A DNA stretch of 36,369 nucleotides from Platydemus manokwari (lineage: Eukaryota). The translations under genes and the position numbers were made by a program. The notes under the pieces are model-generated. The model searched no databases and had not been told where the DNA came from. It was given only the letters and a program-made list of their open reading frames with translations. Of the stretch, positions 23,565 to 36,369 are shown in pieces; the first letter of the stretch is position 1, and every line of letters starts with the position of its first letter. Location: NCBI GenBank assembly GCA_037951405.1, contig JBBMOY010000013.1, forward strand, positions 1 through 36,369, given 5' to 3'.

Positions 23565-23596
23565 TAGCTACTCTACCCAAATGGGTAGAGTAGCTA
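23565..23596. terminator. Terminator hairpin between convergent operons
   Basis: Perfect 14-bp stem TAGCTACTCTACCC-AAAT-GGGTAGAGTAGCTA. Confidence 0.85.
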
Positions 23597-23619: not shown

Positions 23620-24288
23620 TTACTGGAACTGAACATCAAAACGATTGGTCGGGATTTCACCATCGTTAATGTTGGTATTCAGAACCACGTCAGTTTGCAG
23701 AGTGAACGGAGTACCACCATGCGTACCAGTAACCGTAACAGCAGCAGTTGCAGTAACCACAGCGTCAGTAGCAGACTGGATAGATTTGAACGTGTAAGTA
23801 CCACCTTCACTGGAGAACTCAAACTTATCAGCGATGCTTTCAGGAGTAACGGTAACACCGGTTACAGAACTGGTGATGTCCTCAGCGCCTTTCATTACTT
23901 TAAATGTCAGGTTCTGAGTGGCCCACAGGTTCATTGTCAGCGGAGTACTAACATCAGAAAGCGCTGCCGCTTCAACAACATTAATGGTCAGACTAACTGT
24001 CTTGGTAGACTTACCCCAGTTTTCAGTATCGGCATGTTCAGCACCTGCATCAGCATATTTGAATACAACCGTTGCATCTTGAACACCCACAGCAACTGCG
24101 GTCATTACGAATGATACAGTACCTGCACCAGTATCTGGGGTACCAGCACCCAGAGTGATCAGACCTTTCAGATCACTAGCTGCTTCATCAATGGTAACTT
24201 TGCCAGGAACACCAACACCTTCGAAAGTAGGTTTGATGACCATTGCAGAGACTTGACCATTATCAAGCGTATACGACTTATCGCTCAT
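23620..24288 (-). CDS. Small two-domain Ig-like virion fibre protein (candidate self-polymerising major subunit)
   Basis: 222 aa, T/V/A-rich beta protein; TAAGGA SD; C-terminal half aligns with that of 24302-25549. Confidence 0.75.
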   Translation of the reverse strand: MSDKSYTLDNGQVSAMVIKPTFEGVGVPGKVTIDEAASDLKGLITLGAGTPDTGAGTVSFVMTAVAVGVQDATVVFKYADAGAEHADTENWGKSTKTVSLTINVVEAAALSDVSTPLTMNLWATQNLTFKVMKGAEDITSSVTGVTVTPESIADKFEFSSEGGTYTFKSIQSATDAVVTATAAVTVTGTHGGTPFTLQTDVVLNTNINDGEIPTNRFDVQFQ

Positions 24289-24301: not shown

Positions 24302-25549
24302 TTATAGAAACTCAACGTTGAACCGATTGGTTGGAATCTCGCCGTTGTTTATTTCCGTTGTTAAACTCACGGTCTGACTCATAACATGCTCCGTACCACC
24401 ATCCATAAAGGTGAAGTTTAATGTAGCAGAAGCAGTCAACTGAGCAGTGGTTGAAGAAGAGATTGCTTTAATACCCCAACTGTCATCAGAGAGTTTCACC
24501 AGTTCATATTTGGACGAAACTTCTGGAGTGTCAGTCATGGTGATGTTTGAGATTGGACCACTGATATCTGCACCATTATTGGTAATAGTAAATGCCAGAG
24601 GTTTGGTTTCCCACAACTTAAGTGTCAATGGGGTAGGGGTAATGGTAATTCCCGGCGCATAGATTCTGCTTGGGACATTAACGGTGGAAATATTTTTACC
24701 TACAATCAAGTCGGTAGTTGAAGTTCCTAGTGATATTCTCAGATCCTGTTCCGATACTTGATCTGGAGCGGTTAGTTCAATTTCAAAACGATTTAATAAA
24801 GTTCCACCAGTTCCGCCAGATGTAAATGGATAAATTGTAGAATGTGCTTTCAAGAAAGAGACATTCTTAACTGGGTTATAGTAACCTTTATAGAAAATAT
24901 CAATAAAGATACTTTTCTTAGTTCCTTTAGCAACAAGGAATGGTGTCGGGTCTTTATATTCAGCTTTGATTTGTGTTCCATCATAAGGCGCAATAATAAA
25001 GTTACCACTTGCATTCCGGACCATTTGAGCTGGATCTATCGACGCCGGAAGCTTGAATGTGTAATCTACAGTAACAGTTTTCTCAGGGCCTACAGCTACC
25101 TGAGCCAACCACCAATATTTATTCATGGCAACTGGAGTGCCTGGAGCATATGAGTAATCCAGAATTTCAGGAACAGCACCACGAGTCACATCAGTCAACT
25201 GACTGGTAACATCGACACCGTCATGCCAAACTTGGAATGGTAATGCATTGCCATTTTCCCAAGCTTTAACATGAAGATCTGCCGGACGAACTTCGTAATC
25301 AACTTGGACTACGGTATGTTTAAATGTACAAGGGACCTTAACTTCATAGCGCCCCTGGTATGTAAATGTGAGGTTCAGGTTGTATAACGCCTCTTGTGTA
25401 ACCCCGCCCTTAAATTCATAGGTGATCGAGTCATCCTGAATAGAAGCGATCTGGACGCTCGGGTGAGCGTCCAGTGTGATTACCATTTGAGGATCATTAT
25501 TACTAATTACCTGACCAGCTATACGAACACTACTTTTTAGCGTGGTCAT
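24302..25549 (-). CDS. Ig-like repeat virion fibre protein (candidate adaptor)
   Basis: 415 aa; N-terminus like 25561-29049, C-terminus like 23620-24288. Confidence 0.75.
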   Translation of the reverse strand: MTTLKSSVRIAGQVISNNDPQMVITLDAHPSVQIASIQDDSITYEFKGGVTQEALYNLNLTFTYQGRYEVKVPCTFKHTVVQVDYEVRPADLHVKAWENGNALPFQVWHDGVDVTSQLTDVTRGAVPEILDYSYAPGTPVAMNKYWWLAQVAVGPEKTVTVDYTFKLPASIDPAQMVRNASGNFIIAPYDGTQIKAEYKDPTPFLVAKGTKKSIFIDIFYKGYYNPVKNVSFLKAHSTIYPFTSGGTGGTLLNRFEIELTAPDQVSEQDLRISLGTSTTDLIVGKNISTVNVPSRIYAPGITITPTPLTLKLWETKPLAFTITNNGADISGPISNITMTDTPEVSSKYELVKLSDDSWGIKAISSSTTAQLTASATLNFTFMDGGTEHVMSQTVSLTTEINNGEIPTNRFNVEFL

Positions 25550-25560
25550 TCATGATTCCT

Positions 25561-28500
25561 TTATTCTGGAAGTTTAACGTTTTGAACAACGGTAACAGTT
25601 TGCTTACTATTACCTTCGATGTCCTTAATGAATCCATCGCCAAGTTCGAGAGGATACATTCCTACAGTTAATTGAATACTTGCTGGATATTCAAACTCAC
25701 CATCTTTAATAGTGAATGAGAACAATGCAGTACCCGCAGCTTTAGCTGTAGCATTGAAGGAGATCGTGCCGTCATTGTTGTTGACGAGATCTGCAACAGT
25801 AAACAGGTTATTCTCAACAGTCGGATTCAAAATCTGGGTATTTGCCAGGTTCTCAGATGGATCACCCCAACGGTTCTGATGGATCTGCAACGTAACCGGA
25901 GTTACGAGATTAGGTCCTAACAGAGTGTTGTCGTTGTTGGTTACAACGATAGGTGTTTTGTTGACTTGTACAGAAATGCTACCATTACGGTACAATCCAT
26001 CAATATCACTCAGGTGAAGCATCTTGATTCTAGCATAATCACCGGTCCAACCAGTTTTAAGATCGAAACTGAAATCAGCCGTATTTCCAACCTGAACAGC
26101 TTTAGCAGTATCCTTATTAAAGAAAGGATTTCCGGTAACAGGGTTATTATAGTTACGTTGCCAAATTAACTTACCCGTCATTGGAGAGTTATCAAGCCCG
26201 TTTAGGAACTTATCATTAACAACAGCTTCCGTACTACCCTCTCTGGTTTGACGTACGCCAAAGTTGATGTTGGAGTTCATGTTGGCACCAGCTGTCTTGT
26301 TGATATCCAACCTGACATCGGCTTGGTCCAGTTCACCATAAGTATATGAAGGATCGGAAATCAACCGATACTTAATATAGAACCCTTTGAACCCATCAGT
26401 ATCTTGTCGTATCTTAATGAAGAGTTTCCCTTCATCATCAACACCGACAATCTCAGGTAGTTCTGCAACATCTCTTGTTGAAAGAGAGTAATCAATATCT
26501 GGATCTGTAGGATCCATCTCAATGCCGTCTTTCAAGAATACCAGTTTTTGTGGTGTACCATTTCTATTTCTCAGCATCGGGTTGATAGAGAAACGACGAC
26601 CTTCAACTATACCGCTACCGTTATACACCATAAACTTTCTAGATGTAATATAAACGCTAGCTGTATCGTCGGCAGTCAATCCAGCGTTTGGTGCACCTTC
26701 TTTAATGGTGTATGTCAGCTTAACAGTTTGGTTCTCAAGCTCTGTCCCAGCAGAGCTGGTCAAGATCACATCACAGTACCCACCTTGGGTGGTAACGGAT
26801 TTAACAGTTATGGTTGGGTTATCAGAAACAACTTCGATAACGTCCCCACCTAAGTTAACTCCACCCATCTGTGCAACCGCTCTAACCATTATGTCAGAAT
26901 CAGACTTACCGTAAACGGTTTTATACTGAGGTTGGATTACAACGCTTAGACCTTCAATAGCTTGAAGCTCGATTCGTTTAGGATAGTGAACATTATTCTC
27001 AACAACGGAGTACGTTACAGAACCTGCGCCTTTAGTACCATTACCGGTAACGGTAATTTTGAATGTACCATTCTCGTTAACAACCGTAGCAGCTTTAACA
27101 GTCCCATCAACACTTATATTCCGGATATCAGTAGAGGTTGCAAAGTTCCAATCTTCTTGACCCAAACGTTCCTGAGACCAAGTAACAAAGACATCAGTCT
27201 TAACACCATCAACAAAGTTGAAGTTGTTGTTCAGGACCGTGGCTGTGATAGGTGCTTGGGCAACTAACTGACTACCCGTTGCTTTGTAGACAATGTTACC
27301 ACCAGGGAGACGAACATATTCGGTCATTTCCGCCAGGGCACCAGTCCAGCCTGTCTTAACATTACGACCAAACCCTATGTTGTTTGTAGTGGTAGGTTTA
27401 TCGAGAAGTTCGATAATTGCGTTACCTGTACTTGGGTTGTTAACGTATTTAGACAGCAAGACTTTATCAACTGTTATATCAGCGGAACCAATTTGATATT
27501 TGTTGTTCATGACAACAGTTTCTTGGTTTGGAGGCAAACTACCTGCTAGTGTGTAGGTACAGTCAGTTACCGCGGCGCCGGTTGGGATGGTAATGATTGG
27601 GGTTGTGGTACCTACACCAGGAACGCCATCGATGGTGATTTGATATTGAATACCTGCTGAGGTTGCAGCACCGGTATAAATCAATTTACCGATAAATCCA
27701 CCATCATACTTATCGATGTATTGGCCAGTTGCTTGAGAAGCTGTAGCCACTACAATCTTAACTTTAGGATCATCAACTTTATATTCCACGCCATTACCAT
27801 CAGAAATGGTAATTGGGTAATCGAAGTATCCTTGTTTCTTGATTGACATATCCCTGCTAGGTGGAAGTACAGTTACCTGTTGCATCGACTTAACAATAAT
27901 AGACTGCATTTGCGTTGTAGATGCACCACCATAACCATAAGTGATATTGGTGAAGTTGTTAATATCGGCGCCAGTGTTGTTGGCATCGAGTATCTTAAAT
28001 GTAACAACTTTTCCAACTTTGGATACCACAGATAACCTGGCTGGATTGGCAATCGTAATCTCTACGTCTTCCATAGAAAGTTGAACACCATCCATAGAAA
28101 TAGTTATGGTCTGTTCAACTTCCTGATTTTGCTTACCAGTTAGTACGGCAGGATTTCTAGCATTAAATACAAGACCTGGCTCATAAGCTTTCATGTCGAC
28201 TTTAATATCAACACGGTTTTTACCTACTACACTGTTTGTGCCATTACCGCCGAATACTAACGTACCTTCACCAGTAAAGCTAGCGCTAGCACCAAACGTT
28301 ACCCAGATCTGCTGCGTATCTTTCTTCAGGTCTTGGCTGGAATAGTTAATTGGTGCAGTTGAAGCGAAGTTTTGTAGGTAACGGACGTAATCAGTGCCAT
28401 CACGATAGTTACGATATTTGAAGGAGAACTTAAGCGGTGTTAACGTCCCAACAGGAATCTTGAACTCTTCAAACAGCGGAGTGATGGTTAACTCTTGTCC

Positions 28501-29049
28501 GTCGTAAGTTGCTACGATAAACTCACCAGTAAATGAACGAGTTACCCCTGGGAGATCATCACTTAAACGGAAAGTGTAATCGATGTTGATAGTAGTCTGG
28601 CTAAATGCCGACTCAGATTCGATAGTCCAAGACTTAGAACCTGTATCACCTGCTTTAACAATGCTCTTAGGTGTAAATGCAACGTCCACCACATTTGCAG
28701 TAACGTCTTCACCACCTTTACTTACCGTAAATGGTAAGGCATCACCACGTGCCCAACACTGTGTGTTAATAGGAGCAGAAGTAATAGTAACTTTAGACTC
28801 TGTACCCATGTTAACCAACGACAGAGGTTGCTCAAGGGTATACAGTTCTTTATATACGAAAGACAGACTAAGGTTGTAGAGGGTGTCCGTGGGGACACCC
28901 TCTTTAAACGAGTATGTAATATAGTCATCACCGATCTCGGAGATTTCGACTTTCGCCGCATCAGCTCCAGTCAGGGTAATGACCATATTGGGATCGTTAT
29001 TACTTAGGGCCTGTCCATCGAGTAACATTGCTTGTTTTAATGTACTCAT
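25561..29049 (-). CDS. Large Ig-like repeat virion fibre protein
   Basis: 1162 aa of ~90-100-aa beta-rich repeats; NNPxTGN..KTGWTG occurs twice. Confidence 0.75.
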   Translation of the reverse strand: MSTLKQAMLLDGQALSNNDPNMVITLTGADAAKVEISEIGDDYITYSFKEGVPTDTLYNLSLSFVYKELYTLEQPLSLVNMGTESKVTITSAPINTQCWARGDALPFTVSKGGEDVTANVVDVAFTPKSIVKAGDTGSKSWTIESESAFSQTTINIDYTFRLSDDLPGVTRSFTGEFIVATYDGQELTITPLFEEFKIPVGTLTPLKFSFKYRNYRDGTDYVRYLQNFASTAPINYSSQDLKKDTQQIWVTFGASASFTGEGTLVFGGNGTNSVVGKNRVDIKVDMKAYEPGLVFNARNPAVLTGKQNQEVEQTITISMDGVQLSMEDVEITIANPARLSVVSKVGKVVTFKILDANNTGADINNFTNITYGYGGASTTQMQSIIVKSMQQVTVLPPSRDMSIKKQGYFDYPITISDGNGVEYKVDDPKVKIVVATASQATGQYIDKYDGGFIGKLIYTGAATSAGIQYQITIDGVPGVGTTTPIITIPTGAAVTDCTYTLAGSLPPNQETVVMNNKYQIGSADITVDKVLLSKYVNNPSTGNAIIELLDKPTTTNNIGFGRNVKTGWTGALAEMTEYVRLPGGNIVYKATGSQLVAQAPITATVLNNNFNFVDGVKTDVFVTWSQERLGQEDWNFATSTDIRNISVDGTVKAATVVNENGTFKITVTGNGTKGAGSVTYSVVENNVHYPKRIELQAIEGLSVVIQPQYKTVYGKSDSDIMVRAVAQMGGVNLGGDVIEVVSDNPTITVKSVTTQGGYCDVILTSSAGTELENQTVKLTYTIKEGAPNAGLTADDTASVYITSRKFMVYNGSGIVEGRRFSINPMLRNRNGTPQKLVFLKDGIEMDPTDPDIDYSLSTRDVAELPEIVGVDDEGKLFIKIRQDTDGFKGFYIKYRLISDPSYTYGELDQADVRLDINKTAGANMNSNINFGVRQTREGSTEAVVNDKFLNGLDNSPMTGKLIWQRNYNNPVTGNPFFNKDTAKAVQVGNTADFSFDLKTGWTGDYARIKMLHLSDIDGLYRNGSISVQVNKTPIVVTNNDNTLLGPNLVTPVTLQIHQNRWGDPSENLANTQILNPTVENNLFTVADLVNNNDGTISFNATAKAAGTALFSFTIKDGEFEYPASIQLTVGMYPLELGDGFIKDIEGNSKQTVTVVQNVKLPE

Positions 29050-29064
29050 GGATTTTACAGTTCC

Positions 29065-32000
29065 TTATTCAGGGTTAAGTACAAATTGTGTTAACGTCAC
29101 AGGATTATCAACGTCACCTTGCCCAGTGGATTGGAATCCTGGTGCTGGGGTCAACTTAGGATGCAGAGATTGCTGAGTAACATTCAAAATTGCGGTGGCA
29201 ATTTCCTTCTTACTCCAAATGCCTGAGAAACCGAATTGAACATTGGTGGTCTTAGCATTTTCAGTGATGTCCCTAACAAACCTAACATCAAAGCTATCCT
29301 TGGTTACTGACCCAGGTACCAACTCAATCACGTCAGATGGAGTGCATCCTTCCCAATCGTGAGTGGTTAGATCTCTTTGAATACCAGCATAGTTACCACG
29401 GGCGTGGATGGTGAATACATCACCAAACTTGCCAGTTATCTCTTTAGGTACCGGTTCCGTTAATTGGAATGGAGCTGCCGTGCTGTAAACAGTTAGCTCT
29501 ACAGGAACTTCGAACTCCCCAGTTGGATTACCCTCAACCCCACCATCAATTCTGATTCTGAAATTTTGGATACCAAATGCAGTCACGATGTTACTAGATT
29601 TAGCGGTAATTTGAAGCTTGGTATTAAACTCCGTTGTGCTAATCATCGATACATAACGCGGACCATCACCATACCCAGACCATCTAACCATCTTGACTAT
29701 TGTATCTCCTTTATATAGGGGAACAATGTTAAACCAAGCTTGGGAACCAAGAGTGAATGTGGTAGTACCTTCAATTTTAAATGTGTAAGGACTTCCGTCA
29801 TAAGCAGCAATGTTAAACGGAACTTCTACCGTTCTCTTAAATCCTGATGGATCTGTAGATAAACGATAGTACCATGTCGACATTACCACCTTAGCAGGTT
29901 GAGCGGCTTCAGCGATAATCTGATAAGTAGGTCTTGGAGAAACATTAATCATGTTCTCATTATCAACAAGTTCGACATCGTAAAGACCCTGAGGTATATC
30001 GCTTGAGTCAACCACTTGGAAAGGGGTTTTGGATGACTTGTCCCAAACCTTAACATCCATCTGGGTAAGTTTGACGAACATGTTCGGTTTAACTGTCAGA
30101 TCTATTTCGTGTATGGCAAAACGACCATCACGATCAGTAACCTTCAGTGTAACAACCTCGTTAATGTCCTCTGTTGTTGTCATCGCAACATCGAAACTGA
30201 CATCCCCAGCATTACGCATACCCAAAGTCATGTAATCAGCCGGTTCAACATTCCACGTTAATCCAACATCATCAAAACGACGATTATTGCCATCGATAGT
30301 CAATGTACCAGTAAAGGTAATCCGATCTCCTTTCTTACCGGAGGCAGAATCAGGACTTAGGGTCAGAACAAAACCAGAAGAATCGATTTCCGCCGTAACG
30401 TCCAGAGTGACTTGATATTCATATCCATCGCCATCGGTTACAGTGAATGTAGCACTACCAGCTCCGGTTTCACCTTTACCATAGAAGGTAGCGGTAAATG
30501 TTCCATCGCTGTTACCGATCGTATCGACTTTCTGAATAGCCCCAGTTATAGTTACTGTATCAGAAATCGTTGCATCAGAGAACGTGTAATGTTCTACAAT
30601 GTCATTGATTAAACGTTCTTGCGATAGAGTAAATGTCATAGCCTTGCTAGCATTGGTAATGCCATTAATAACCCTATCAGCACCACCAACTGTAATTGTA
30701 GCTGGAGGAATAATCAGTTCAGAATCACGCAATACCCAGTTATCAGCAAGGTCAGGGAATACCGCAACCATGTTTATGGTAATTTTCCCACCCGTCCAAC
30801 CGGACTTAAACTTCAGTGCATTGCGATAAATATCACCAGGTGCCTCTATAAGTTCAAGTTCGCCAAGTAAAGCATTACCCGTTGAAGGATTGTTTTTACC
30901 TGATAATGATAGAACAGTTGTAGGTTTGGCGATATTGTAACCTGATCTTTGGAATTCAACAGGGATAATGTTCTCTGCATTACCCAAAGGCTCCTTCAAA
31001 GCTTTTAACGTTACTGGGACTAAGTTAGTCATACTGTAACTTGCTTGAATGTTAACATACCCCGATATCTCAGGTGGATTAACACCATCGTTATACGTCA
31101 CCATAATACGGTTAGTAAACGATGCAGCAGCATCTGGTTTGCGATTAAAAGCGAACCAAACGTATCGATCTTCAATCCCAACAATATCAAAGATTGGTGG
31201 AGTAACTGTCGACGCATTACTGACTTCCATAGACAAACGAGGGGCATTTGGCTTAAGTAACACACCACCGTAATAAATCTTGGCATCCCAACTGAATGGT
31301 CTAGCATAAACTTGGGTAGAAGGAACCAGTGTGATTGGAAGTACGGATAGCCCTTTGTTAACATAAATACCTGTAAAATTACCAACCCATTTATTCACAT
31401 TAACTGTGGTGCCTGGTGTATCATCAATCGTGAGAGTTAATACACATGCATTACTTCCTGATCCAAATGTGTCAGGTGCGGTATACTCAATGACTACCCC
31501 AACTCCATCACCAGCAGGTCCCACTATAGTTATAGGTACTGTGAATAAAGTACCAACTTGAACAGTCCCACTAAATCCATTTGCTAATGGCTTCCCTCTA
31601 TACACAGGCCAAACCGTAAACCGGTTGGTGTTGTTACGTGATACAGGAATTTCTGTAGTTACCCCAACACCACGGCCATAGTCAACGGTTACCTTAAATG
31701 CAATGCCATCATAGGCCGCTACGTTGTAATTACCACGAGCAGTAAGCGTTTCCCAAATTCCATTAACTTTGGCTTCATACGTGAAGTATTGTGGGAATAA
31801 GGTTTCAGTTGTTCTTCCATCAACAACTTCCCATGAATTAGGATCGTCAGGTAATGGAGAGAAATATTGTCCATTCTTGATCAATCTAACATTTCTGATT
31901 TGATCATTTATCAATACGCCATTGTTATATACATCAAACGGTGGAGTATTTAGAACATCAAACACTTTGACTTGGACAGTCTTCTCAGTTGTCGTAATCT

Positions 32001-33636
32001 TGTTAGCAAATGAAGCCTGTACGATGACACTGAAATCCATCTCAGTTCCACCTGTTGGTTTAAACTTACCATAAATCCGTACATCGCCCTCAGAACCTCT
32101 AGCGGCTAACTGTTGTGACATCTGGCCGTTTTTGAGGTTTGTCCCACTTGTACTAGCAGCAGCCCCTTCAACGTAAACCATGGAGAAATCACCAGGGATA
32201 AGTTCTAATCCATTTCCTCGATCTTGTTTACAAGAAATCAGAACAGCAGAATTAGCACCCGCATTACCGTTAACAGTTTTAGTATTGGTGGTGAAAACAT
32301 ATGGGGCTTCAGGAATATCGAATCCTGAATCAGAGACTAACATCGGATAATACCAGTCCCTTGGATAGCTTTTGGCAATATACGGACAACGAATCACCAC
32401 ATTAGTAAAGAGAGCACGCTGTGCCATCCAACTAGGTTTAGTTTCGGCAACAACCCTACCGATGGAATTAACTTTCTTACCGGATAAATCAACGGTTTGG
32501 ATGATAGTATTTGTGGAGGTATCAGTTATCCTCAATTCACCTTTTTCAAATACAGCGTCAAAAGGTTCAAACCAAGCATAAGGGATCGTGGTGGTTAAAT
32601 CACCTATTTGTACAACAGCATTTACTTCTTTATTGGCAACAGGACCTATAAGGAAGTTAGACATATAGAAGTTATTAGGACCAGAGTATGTCGTAACGCT
32701 TAGCTTTTGAACTGCTGTTTTTGCTCCCTTTGTGACCGTCAAATCGACGTTACCCATTGGAGGATTACTGGAACTAGCAGGCGGTTGTTTTAATGTCCAT
32801 TTAATACCATCTGACTGGACTGTAATTCCAAGACGGTTGTTAGGACTTGACATGTTACCAGCATCGGTTAATGTGTAACTTATAGACGGGTCGGTTAGTG
32901 AAAGCTTTGTGGTTCCCTCATAAAGTTCGAAGAACGACATCGCCTTGTAGCTTAGAACACCGGAAAAGTTTACACTGTACCAGTCCCACATGACTATAAC
33001 CAGATCTGTATTCCCTGCCACGATAATTTTTGCACGGGCAATCAGGTTAACAAAGTTTTTGTCTGATACAGGATTTGAGGGTACCGGAAGTCTATTGACT
33101 CTTATCGGTAACCCTGCTAAGGCATTAACAGTTGCTCCAACGAGAACAATGCGGTGCGTTACGCCATCTTCTAAAACTTCTTGACGAACTATAGAGACTC
33201 CTGGGTAAGGTGTCAGGCCGGTAACTGAAAGGGTTGCTTCCACCTCACCAGCTTTCAGTAATACACCTTTATAGGTGGCCTGATAGTCTAAAGTAAATTC
33301 CTTATTCTGCTCTGATACCACCACGCCCGTACTTGGATTGGTAAAATTTACTTTGAACTGTCCTGCTGTAGTTGCAGATACAGTTATATCAGTGGAAGCT
33401 TCCAATTCATAAGGAAGTCCACCATAATCAACTTCTAGTTTAAATGTTGTCGCTTCGGTAACGTCTTCTTCATCGGCAGCAATAACGGTGAATGTGGCAT
33501 CACCGTTCGGCTTCAAATAGGGGGAGGGAACTCCCCCTTGCTCGATTGCTGTCAGACGGATATTGTTAGTAATATCTTCGCCCGAAATAGGATCGTTAAC
33601 CTGAAACGGAACAAGTGAAGATTTGTTCAATTCCAC
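29065..33636 (-). CDS. Large Ig-like repeat virion fibre protein
   Basis: 1523 aa; GTG start with AGGA SD; recurrent VKV[WF], AAYDG, SQER and GWTGG motifs. Confidence 0.75.
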   Translation of the reverse strand: MELNKSSLVPFQVNDPISGEDITNNIRLTAIEQGGVPSPYLKPNGDATFTVIAADEEDVTEATTFKLEVDYGGLPYELEASTDITVSATTAGQFKVNFTNPSTGVVVSEQNKEFTLDYQATYKGVLLKAGEVEATLSVTGLTPYPGVSIVRQEVLEDGVTHRIVLVGATVNALAGLPIRVNRLPVPSNPVSDKNFVNLIARAKIIVAGNTDLVIVMWDWYSVNFSGVLSYKAMSFFELYEGTTKLSLTDPSISYTLTDAGNMSSPNNRLGITVQSDGIKWTLKQPPASSSNPPMGNVDLTVTKGAKTAVQKLSVTTYSGPNNFYMSNFLIGPVANKEVNAVVQIGDLTTTIPYAWFEPFDAVFEKGELRITDTSTNTIIQTVDLSGKKVNSIGRVVAETKPSWMAQRALFTNVVIRCPYIAKSYPRDWYYPMLVSDSGFDIPEAPYVFTTNTKTVNGNAGANSAVLISCKQDRGNGLELIPGDFSMVYVEGAAASTSGTNLKNGQMSQQLAARGSEGDVRIYGKFKPTGGTEMDFSVIVQASFANKITTTEKTVQVKVFDVLNTPPFDVYNNGVLINDQIRNVRLIKNGQYFSPLPDDPNSWEVVDGRTTETLFPQYFTYEAKVNGIWETLTARGNYNVAAYDGIAFKVTVDYGRGVGVTTEIPVSRNNTNRFTVWPVYRGKPLANGFSGTVQVGTLFTVPITIVGPAGDGVGVVIEYTAPDTFGSGSNACVLTLTIDDTPGTTVNVNKWVGNFTGIYVNKGLSVLPITLVPSTQVYARPFSWDAKIYYGGVLLKPNAPRLSMEVSNASTVTPPIFDIVGIEDRYVWFAFNRKPDAAASFTNRIMVTYNDGVNPPEISGYVNIQASYSMTNLVPVTLKALKEPLGNAENIIPVEFQRSGYNIAKPTTVLSLSGKNNPSTGNALLGELELIEAPGDIYRNALKFKSGWTGGKITINMVAVFPDLADNWVLRDSELIIPPATITVGGADRVINGITNASKAMTFTLSQERLINDIVEHYTFSDATISDTVTITGAIQKVDTIGNSDGTFTATFYGKGETGAGSATFTVTDGDGYEYQVTLDVTAEIDSSGFVLTLSPDSASGKKGDRITFTGTLTIDGNNRRFDDVGLTWNVEPADYMTLGMRNAGDVSFDVAMTTTEDINEVVTLKVTDRDGRFAIHEIDLTVKPNMFVKLTQMDVKVWDKSSKTPFQVVDSSDIPQGLYDVELVDNENMINVSPRPTYQIIAEAAQPAKVVMSTWYYRLSTDPSGFKRTVEVPFNIAAYDGSPYTFKIEGTTTFTLGSQAWFNIVPLYKGDTIVKMVRWSGYGDGPRYVSMISTTEFNTKLQITAKSSNIVTAFGIQNFRIRIDGGVEGNPTGEFEVPVELTVYSTAAPFQLTEPVPKEITGKFGDVFTIHARGNYAGIQRDLTTHDWEGCTPSDVIELVPGSVTKDSFDVRFVRDITENAKTTNVQFGFSGIWSKKEIATAILNVTQQSLHPKLTPAPGFQSTGQGDVDNPVTLTQFVLNPE

Positions 33637-33652
33637 GGTATTTTCCTGTTAA

Positions 33653-36369
33653 TTATTCTGGATTAAGAACACCCTGTTTAAGAGTCACAGGATTCTCCAT
33701 ATCCCCAGAGCCTGTTGATTCGAAACCAGGAGCTGGCGTTAGTTTAGGATGAGCTGCAAGCTGTCTAGCTGTGAACGTGGTTCGTCCAGTGCCTTCTGTC
33801 ATGTAGCGCATACTAACTGTCATTTCTGTATCTTTACTGTTCTCCGTGATATCGGCAAGGAACCTGACTTTAAACCCATCGGCGGTTCTAGACCCAGGGA
33901 CCATCTCCACAATACCAGCAGGAGTGAATGCAGGATCTTGCCATGATGGATTGTTCACGTCATTGCGATTACCACTAAGCCAAACTTTAATGGTGACCGG
34001 TATTTCCTCACCAAATCTACCCACTAAAGGATTCGGTTTAAAATCACTTAATGCACTTCGGTTATAGAAATCATAAATAGTGATGATAAATGTAACAGTA
34101 ACTATATCTTGGCCAGGCACACTTCCAGTACCAACACGGATTGAATACGAGTTCGGTATTTCAAACGTGTTACTCGTATTAACTGACCTAAATGTGAATC
34201 TTCCTTGTCCTTCGAAGTTGGTGTAATCCGCGGTGGCGATGGAAGGAGCACTAATAGGTCCGATATTTGTGGGTTTCTCGGTGACTGGTTCAGCCCTACG
34301 GTAAACGAAGAAGTCACCCTGGAATTGAGAGCTTGCAACATATCTGTAAAGAGGGTACTGTGGAACTGCCGTTAATATATAACCGTTATGTGCTTCAACG
34401 TTATAAGTAATATCGATTGTTCTCTTCGTTCCTTCCAAATCAGTAGGTAAACGGTATTCCCAAGTCACCACTTCGGTTCTGGCCGGTAACACGCCTTCAC
34501 CTTTCACAGTCCACATGTTCACAGCCGGTTTATTCCTGTTCTCCATCTTAACGGCGATTACAACATCGTCATTAATTGGTTTGCAGTCCAATACCGTATC
34601 TGTGATATCAACTTCACCTTCCTTCATTACGAAAGGATAACCGTTAATACGTTCCCAGACCTTAACGTTGAACACCTTAGGTTCGATGGTCAAGTTTTTC
34701 TTAACGTTAACCGTTACCGGTTGGGAAACTGTCATACCTAAGAAATTGGCAGTGACATTAACTACTTGGGTTACGTCGTCAGGGGAGTTACGCACAATAC
34801 GAAGATCAAACGTTCCAGCAGTACCATTCTCAAATTCAACCCAACCTTCATGTTCAACCGAGTAGATCATGTTCCCATTGGAATTATCCCAACGAAGATC
34901 TGTGTCGTTATACTTCACTGTACCGGTAATCGTTGTCACGTCACCAGCGACACCTTCTACAACGTTGTTCTCCAGAACCATTGACATCGGGCTTGAATCG
35001 ATGACTGCATTAACATTCAGAACGATATCAATACTTTCCCCATCGTCATCCGTGATCGTCATGGTTATCGTCCCAGGACCCTGAGTACCATTACCATAAA
35101 CGTCAACAAAGAAGGTTCCTTTGTTGTTAAAGGCGGCAGAAGCTTGTTTAACTGACCCGGTAACAACTCCGACAGGATAAATCTCGGCATTGGTAAAGTT
35201 GTAGTTGGTTGTTACACCATTCACCCTACGCTGTTGGGATAATGTAAACCGAATCTCAGTCTTACGATTCTCTATCCCGTCAATTTGATTTGTGGCTTGA
35301 GTTACGTCTACTGGTACCGGAGGTACTTTAATTATAACAGGTTGTGTCGAATAAACGGTTGGGAATTCCCAGGTACCAAGATAGAATATCTCACCACCTT
35401 TCCAACCAGAATCGAACTTCAAAGCGCCCTCAGGTAAGTACTCAACCCCGTTGACCGCAACATCAGAACCAGCAGGAGTTATTTTTACGTTCGCCCTTCC
35501 AATTAACTTAGGAGCTGGGAAAGGAGAAAGAGGATCAACGTAGAACTTGGTTGGTAATGTGTTTTCGGCGTTAGCGACTGGATCACCAATGACTTCCATA
35601 ATTGGAATGGTGGTAGCTCCACTGCTAAATCCAATTGTTAATGCAGATGGTACTGTGGAATGCACTGTCCCGTCAGGAGCTGTATATTTAACTGTCGCTA
35701 ACTGATACCAACTAGCCGAACCTGTGGCAGCTCTATACGTAAACAGATAAATAGTTGTTGCGTCCGAACCCGCATACTCAACAAACTTAGCTTGGTTTGG
35801 ATGACCTTCAATCACGTAATCCAAACGAGGGTCATCAAGTTTCAGTCTGACAGCATCAAAGTAGACGGCCGGTTGCCAGTTCCTGGTACTACCCAATCCT
35901 CCATAACTAGGAGTAGGTGAGGAATGTTCGACATACAGACCTTTCTGAATAGCAGTGAGCGTTACCGTTTCACTCACAACGGTTTTTTGGTTAACCAATT
36001 CCTCAATGGGAATCCCTTTAACCTGATAATAGAACGTGATGGAGGCGGTCGTATAGTTGGTACCGATACCCAATGTTACAACAATACCGGTTCCTTCATC
36101 GTTAACCTTCTGTCCTTTGAACTCAATGCCGGTTCGAGTAATTGGTCTCAGCTCGATATTTTCAAGATCAAGTTTGCCCTTATATTGAGGGTAGAAGGTA
36201 TAGGTATACGTCCCACCTAAAGGAACCTTCGGATTCTTACTCGTTCTGTCCCCAGGGATGTACTCGGCATTGGGGACGATCGCAATCCCATTCCACGCTG
36301 CAATATCGTAACTACCCTGACCGATTTGATTAATGACGCCGCTGGCTAGAACCAGATCATAAGTAAAGT
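33653..36369 (-). CDS. Large Ig-like repeat virion fibre protein (5' end outside window)
   Basis: I read the frame from 36073 to the window end and found no stop; collinear with the C-terminal part of 29065-33636. Confidence 0.75.
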   Translation of the reverse strand, partial: FTYDLVLASGVINQIGQGSYDIAAWNGIAIVPNAEYIPGDRTSKNPKVPLGGTYTYTFYPQYKGKLDLENIELRPITRTGIEFKGQKVNDEGTGIVVTLGIGTNYTTASITFYYQVKGIPIEELVNQKTVVSETVTLTAIQKGLYVEHSSPTPSYGGLGSTRNWQPAVYFDAVRLKLDDPRLDYVIEGHPNQAKFVEYAGSDATTIYLFTYRAATGSASWYQLATVKYTAPDGTVHSTVPSALTIGFSSGATTIPIMEVIGDPVANAENTLPTKFYVDPLSPFPAPKLIGRANVKITPAGSDVAVNGVEYLPEGALKFDSGWKGGEIFYLGTWEFPTVYSTQPVIIKVPPVPVDVTQATNQIDGIENRKTEIRFTLSQQRRVNGVTTNYNFTNAEIYPVGVVTGSVKQASAAFNNKGTFFVDVYGNGTQGPGTITMTITDDDGESIDIVLNVNAVIDSSPMSMVLENNVVEGVAGDVTTITGTVKYNDTDLRWDNSNGNMIYSVEHEGWVEFENGTAGTFDLRIVRNSPDDVTQVVNVTANFLGMTVSQPVTVNVKKNLTIEPKVFNVKVWERINGYPFVMKEGEVDITDTVLDCKPINDDVVIAVKMENRNKPAVNMWTVKGEGVLPARTEVVTWEYRLPTDLEGTKRTIDITYNVEAHNGYILTAVPQYPLYRYVASSQFQGDFFVYRRAEPVTEKPTNIGPISAPSIATADYTNFEGQGRFTFRSVNTSNTFEIPNSYSIRVGTGSVPGQDIVTVTFIITIYDFYNRSALSDFKPNPLVGRFGEEIPVTIKVWLSGNRNDVNNPSWQDPAFTPAGIVEMVPGSRTADGFKVRFLADITENSKDTEMTVSMRYMTEGTGRTTFTARQLAAHPKLTPAPGFESTGSGDMENPVTLKQGVLNPE

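Follow-up and report, generated by a model that had tools for sequence, protein, structure and literature searches.

A phage gene cluster at the window end

The 36,369-nt stretch of DNA analyzed here (hereafter the window; a complete metagenome contig, JBBMOY010000013.1 of the Platydemus manokwari assembly GCA_037951405.1) ends in two neighboring genes whose large protein products carry nearly identical C-terminal tails on much more diverged bodies, which raises the question of what keeps these tails alike. Judged by its sequence, the window is part of a jumbo phage of the OBP/SXP01 kind. A search with one of the two proteins, B2, matched 10 records, all of them 253-285 kb phages of the OBP-like group, with Shewanella phage SXP01 as the closest match (46.7% over the full length). 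Consistent with OBP/Petsuvirus-like membership, the gene cluster to which B1 and B2 belong is homologous and syntenic in these phages and lies downstream of nrdB. The features of this cluster (genes A to E) that lie within the window are as follows.

33653..36367, minus strand: B1, the 3' 904 codons of an Ig-like repeat protein of ~1,520 aa; the 5' 621 aa, with a type I head, are on contig G000:C1435867
33653..33751, minus strand: type II tail of B1 (32 aa and the stop codon), which is predicted to donate the first strands to a split Ig-like domain
33637..33652, minus strand: B1-B2 spacer, 16 nt, out of frame, with an AGGA ribosome-binding-like motif before the GTG start of B2
29065..33636, minus strand: B2, an Ig-like repeat protein of 1,523 aa, full-length paralogue of B1
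33364..33636, minus strand: type I head of B2, a W-type repeat in which the first strands are absent and which is predicted to accept the tail of A
29065..29163, minus strand: type II tail of B2 (32 aa and the stop codon), sharing 26/32 residues with the tail of B1
25561..29049, minus strand: C, 1,162 aa, both termini of type II, the head (MSTLK) spanning about aa 1-84 and the tail diverged
24302..25549, minus strand: D, 415 aa, head of type II (MTTLK), tail of type III
23620..24288, minus strand: E, 222 aa, head and tail both of type III, with two Ig-like domains
23565..23596, minus strand: terminator-like site, a 14-bp hairpin closing the cluster, consensus match only

The initial annotation is corrected on two points: the B1 gene extends past the end of the window, and the start codon of B2 is GTG. 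Another contig of the same assembly (G000:C1435867) shares 6 nt with the end of the window and contains the 5' 621 codons of B1 with the giant gene A upstream; in a second study, one contig (X2 record 15) spans the B1-B2 junction itself. Promoter-like sites were fewer than in shuffled sequences (20 vs 28.7). At the other end of the window, an NAD-dependent DNA ligase is encoded at positions 35-1780 (phrog_3869); most other plus-strand genes that were scanned have no assigned function.

The SXP01 B2 gene (1,519 aa, GTG start; L002:20001-24560) is absent from the GenBank annotation. Homologues of B1 (P0008) and C (P0018) are labelled Salmonella Saintpaul and lie on a 267-kb contig that is probably a jumbo phage inside a bacterial assembly; one number is missing from the locus tags of this contig where B2 would lie.

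The giant protein A starts with an N-terminal domain that was found in 33 phage records; this domain matched no known family, and ESM Atlas gave nothing usable for it. SXP01 carries a second, short copy of the domain (207061-207594; L027) in a frame of ~203 codons located ~9 kb upstream. An in-frame TAG is present ~196 codons into A (L017:2416-2418, on G000:C1435867). The same site reads TAC in SXP01 and TAT in runs X2 and X3, and the X1 contigs break there; the TAG is probably a minor variant or an assembly error and not a case of recoding (stops of the 37 window ORFs: 29 TAA, 6 TGA and 2 TAG).

Searches of family databases returned no PHROGs family for the 5 cluster proteins in the window, and 6 proteins or parts of proteins from relatives gave weak matches only (E>=0.004). 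Pfam yielded sub-threshold Ig/cadherin matches only, all in C, and E gave Big_2-type leads in ESM Atlas, all under 0.9. Related-locus scans of viral contigs found no locus with B2 or with the B2 alignment; with E they found only OBP and pEt-SU, and a scan of metagenome contigs with C found none. A literature search outside the OBP genome paper found no virion proteomics for these phages and no description of the A-E cluster; likewise, the portions of a TnSeq preprint (PMC12676376) and of the paper on phage ZPAH34 (PMC10321303) that were covered contain nothing on it.

B1 and B2 as paralogues with conserved ends

The initial annotation had described near-identical tails on more diverged bodies, and this description holds. 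The last 32 aa of B1 and B2 are 26/32 identical and the 904 collinear aa are 27% identical; in sliding windows of 32 residues, the tail reaches 26 identities, the runner-up window 19 and the body a mean of 8.3. The identity drops at once as the comparison is lengthened beyond the tail (26/35, 27/40 and 28/80). At the DNA level, the two tails share 67/96 nt, and 17 of the 26 shared residues are encoded by different codons, which indicates selection on the protein and not recent copying of DNA. When the window and SXP01 are compared, tails cluster by paralogue (B1-B1, 82/96 nt; B2-B2, 85/96) and not by genome (67/96 and 60/96 within the same genome), so each tail has been kept separately by selection.

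The opposite ends of the two proteins are also alike. As had been proposed, the N-terminus of B2 is a repeat that is truncated and whose type differs from that of the MSTLK head: it matches the W-type profile only from position 33/120, and complete internal W-type repeats begin at about position 10-15 of the same model (length 120), hence the assignment as truncated. The head of B1 resembles that of B2 (20/32 in the top window of the N-terminal halves), and this shared head type strengthens the idea that both proteins fit the same slot in an assembly. The comparison identifies B1 and B2 as full-length tandem paralogues of ~1,520 aa that arose by plain tandem duplication. Both B genes are present in SXP01; Sureiya, Yubaba and N1M2 have one B gene, and no gene starting with a B-type head was found in OBP, pEt-SU, Survivor, Kc263 or AH04.

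When B1/B2 pairs were divided into 16 segments, head and tail were the two most conserved segments in 6/6 pairs, four of which were paired solely because their longest contigs are equal in length (identities of 62-75% for heads, 67-79% for tails and 12-61% for all other segments). Conservation of the ends would be expected if both copies had to fit the same two partners; with only the ends constrained by partners, the bodies would be free to diverge and recombine. The B bodies are mosaic. In block 1085-1180, for example, P0008, P0009, P0077 and P0078 have B1-type heads and a body that groups with B2 of the window, and P0005, P0006 and P0007 have B2-type heads and a body that groups with B1 of the window.

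Matching of tails and heads

A catalogue of termini, which the initial annotation had put forward as a check, distinguishes three tail types and three head types in the related clusters. Tail and head match in type in 31/33 adjacent pairs from 10 clusters; shuffled pairings gave a mean of 12.2 and a maximum of 22 in 20,000. The types are separated by profile margins of no less than 18.7 bits. The profiles were built from the same termini that were scored and the genomes are kin, with Sureiya and Yubaba almost alike; the 33 joints therefore do not count as independent tests, and the match is to be read as a pattern. The two exceptions are the B1→B2 pair in the window and the same pair in SXP01. 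The window therefore contributes one broken link in the gene-order rule, together with a proposed explanation for the break.

In the complete SXP01 genome, a search found a single type I tail against a pair of type I heads, and three type II tails against two free heads of type II. The third donor type that had been predicted to be encoded outside the window is therefore the tail of the giant gene A, for which B1 and B2 would compete. The claim that the B2 head is not of the type that follows a B1-type tail elsewhere likewise finds support in the sequences. C ends in type II and D starts with type II, so type by itself does not settle the order among the type II joints.

The heads are Ig-like domains without some of their strands: type I heads match the internal-repeat profile from ~33/120 (whole repeats from ~11) and type II heads from ~52/152 (whole repeats from ~28). 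The tail corresponds to the missing part, with one strand duplicated across the split. Unsplit versions, in which tail and head are continuous, occur for type II inside 9 giant proteins, among them A of the same phage, and for type I in pEt-SU A, Survivor A, OBP gp206, P0059 and P0069; these relatives suggest that different lineages have cut the same chain at different domains. At type I and type II joints, the head opens with a repeat of the strand that ends the tail, and unsplit domains contain this strand once only. Simple complementation does not account for the recurring strand; one possibility is that it serves as a placeholder that is displaced during assembly.

In AlphaFold2 models, the unsplit type II stretch of the phage's own A folds into a single domain with a block pLDDT of 92-98, and no structure is seen for the orphan type I tail of A (pLDDT 45-54). 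The best fold matches are tandem Ig/cadherin-like folds, among which no single family stands out; strand labels were assigned from the AlphaFold2 model and general Ig topology. The model of the E monomer is middling (mean pLDDT 67, 3 sequences), with the last ~15 residues unstructured. A three-chain prediction of the C head, the B2 head and the B1 tail scored 0.56 (runs of 0.56, 0.11 and 0.63), with at least 43% of contacts common to the runs and a partner pLDDT of at least 47, and the best of 3 controls scored 0.01. In the calibration, this mark was reached by 51/78 solved and 2/108 mismatched pairs, and the range up to 0.60 held only 5/78 solved pairs along with all 4 mismatches that passed; the complex was predicted with three chains and without alignments, a set-up that differs from that of the calibration, and the support it lends is weak. 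A control in which the C head was replaced and the B1 tail and B2 head were kept scored 0.01 in one run without alignments, which is no evidence against binding of these two. The reading in which B1 and B2 would share one slot is thus well supported by sequence and weakly supported by modelling.

A proposed fiber and its alternatives

We consider it reasonably probable that B1 and B2, which are diverged tandem duplicates with heads and tails that match, act as alternative middle segments of a fiber of Ig-like beads, A→(B1 or B2)→C→D→E, in which segments are joined by a tail that completes the truncated first domain of the next protein. By such strand complementation, each copy of A would recruit either B1 or B2 through the type I joint, and both B1 and B2 would hand on to C through the type II joint; the binding of tails to heads is here inferred from sequences and models. 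The chain, with about 64 domains by a rough count, is predicted to sit on the virion, anchored through the conserved N-terminal domain of A. Against this prediction, no tail fibers were visible by EM in N1M2 (PMC7058600, in part). Duplication of B would have given two segments that keep both joints while their middles diverge and recombine, and the two bodies could provide two adhesive or antigenic surfaces. The initial annotation had both proteins dock as alternative arms on an M[ST]TLK acceptor; the common tail type and the shared slot remain part of the proposal, but B1 and B2 would be mid-chain segments held at both ends and not free arms.

Several known systems are similar in part. Chaperone-usher pili consist of Ig-like domains completed by a peptide of the neighbor, with matched donors and acceptors that encode the order of assembly; the donor is an N-terminal extension that supplies the last strand. 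The proposed A-E joints resemble these pili in that a neighbor's peptide would complete an Ig-like domain. Unlike in the pili, the A-E donor is C-terminal and would supply the first strands, and the subunits are many-domained; the A-E proteins do not have the N-terminal donor extension for a last strand. No chaperone or usher was found among 19 window proteins (PHROGs) or 13 cluster proteins (Pfam). In the BppU-BppA joint of phage Tuc2009, as described in part of PMC4742702, a 25-residue C-terminal beta-hairpin completes the beta-sandwich of another protein to form a titin-like composite domain, much as proposed here; this is, however, one joint in a siphophage baseplate, with no multi-gene chain and no alternative segments. 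The DUF7941 filaments of phage Goslar are also made of paralogous jumbo-phage proteins that are predicted to join head to tail by an intermolecular beta-sheet; filaments of gp22 were seen by EM, and long, possibly mixed filaments were predicted (PMC13742148, in part). In contrast to these, A-E are Ig-bead proteins of 200-5,000 aa with three joint types and a fixed gene order, and PF25613 (DUF7941) had no match in A-E at E<=0.1 in Pfam. The same family had one match in the assembly from which the window comes, on another contig (C380851). Jumbo phages with branched or multiple tail fibers, such as phiKp24, carry several paralogous fiber proteins per virion (PMC13282480, in part), as would be the case for B1 and B2; those fibers are receptor-binding tips tied to capsule types, whereas B1 and B2 are predicted to be mid-chain and no enzymatic domain was found in them. 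The A-E chain as proposed works like strand-complemented pili, BppU-BppA and DUF7941 filaments but belongs to none of these groups.

A rather unlikely alternative is that the joints are promiscuous, so that any type II tail fits either type II head, chains skip or repeat C or vary in length, and B1 and B2 are part of a wider combinatorial assembly. Both the window cluster and SXP01 have three type II tails vs two type II heads, type II termini are found at both ends of C, of OBP gp206 and of a 1,174-aa protein of Survivor, E is type III at both ends, and mixed filaments have been proposed for the DUF7941 proteins of Goslar (PMC13742148, in part). The tail of C, however, differs clearly from the tails of the B proteins, and the window, SXP01 and Survivor all have a C-like tail followed by a D-like head; together, these observations, which are evidence at the level of orthology, suggest matching by sub-type.

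It is still less likely that the tails are a common docking motif for a chaperone, a capsid site or a baseplate site and that B1 and B2 attach independently. Complementation does not require the repeated strand at the joint, and its own first strand might be enough to keep the head stable. Against this, unsplit proteins contain the tail as the N-terminal portion of a domain that runs on into the head, and tail type predicts the head type of the next gene.

A linear chain in gene order, A→B1→B2→C, where the B1 tail would complete the B2 head across types by virtue of a shared Ig-like fold, is very unlikely, even though the chain follows the order of the genes at the remaining 31 joints and the B2 head also weakly matches the G-type repeat profile (7.4 bits). 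Apart from the margins of at least 18.7 bits between types, the B1 and B2 tails are conserved toward each other and toward single-copy B tails that precede MSTLK heads, and the B2 head is conserved toward the B1 head, which follows the A tail; a new joint between the B1 tail and the B2 head should have pulled these ends apart.

Fusion of the genes by ribosomal read-through or hopping, with the repeated strand as take-off and landing site, would fit the TLxQ-type strand that flanks type II joints on either side, as well as the in-frame spacer between B2 and C (15 nt), yet it is highly improbable: spacers at equivalent joints measure 14, 15, 16, 19 and 33 nt in mixed frames, which rules out stop read-through, an AGGA-like motif precedes the start codon at each joint, and the B1-B2 joint has no matching strand and a 16-nt spacer that is out of frame, so no stop read-through could take place there. 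Finally, despite the recombination among these genes that the mosaic B bodies reveal, it is hardly credible that the likeness of the tails has no functional meaning and stems from recent gene conversion or an artefact of assembly, since conversion is ruled out by 70% nucleotide identity with 17 synonymous differences and by the grouping of tails by paralogue, and an artefact by the same arrangement in the isolate SXP01 and by the second-study contig that spans the junction.

Beyond the A→(B1 or B2)→C→D→E fiber, a tentative extension, which we put forward as speculation, is that OBP-like jumbo phages may build a chaperone-free, pilus-like fiber of ~60 Ig beads from separate segments through three orthogonal plug-and-socket joints, with the repeated strand as a placeholder displaced by the incoming tail. 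The SXP01 lineage might then have a cassette system, in which a single slot is contested by two segments whose ends are fixed and whose bodies recombine freely, and each virion carries mixed fibers.

The suggestion that combinatorial fibers serve breadth of host range gained no support, as no receptor-binding or enzymatic family was found in PHROGs or Pfam. Among the strains tested, SXP01, which carries both B genes, lysed none but its own host, according to the part of the host-range table on other species (PMC12571629). If the proposed assembly is true, a cluster of hypothetical proteins that makes up about 8-13% of the genome in OBP-like phages gains a concrete assembly rule, and a phage would have pilus-style ordered assembly with interchangeable segments, the two B copies that fit one slot giving the virus two versions of its fiber. 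The duplicated pair B1/B2 could also serve as a natural experiment that shows which residues make the joint, and the three short, apparently orthogonal tail/head pairs could be used as protein connectors.

Proteins of the Aeromonas jumbo phages D3 and ZPAH34 (L022, L023) combine an A-type N-terminal domain with Ig-like repeats, and none of the known tail or head types was found in the 3 proteins examined; by these features they are classed as stand-alone versions. At the end of the proposed chain, E has type III termini on both sides and could polymerize on itself. No tail-less end protein follows E in the window, SXP01, pEt-SU or Kc263, and six other clusters end in one. In N1M2, the 62-aa gp159 (L004:26885-27073) consists of a type III head only and is a candidate chain cap or a remnant.
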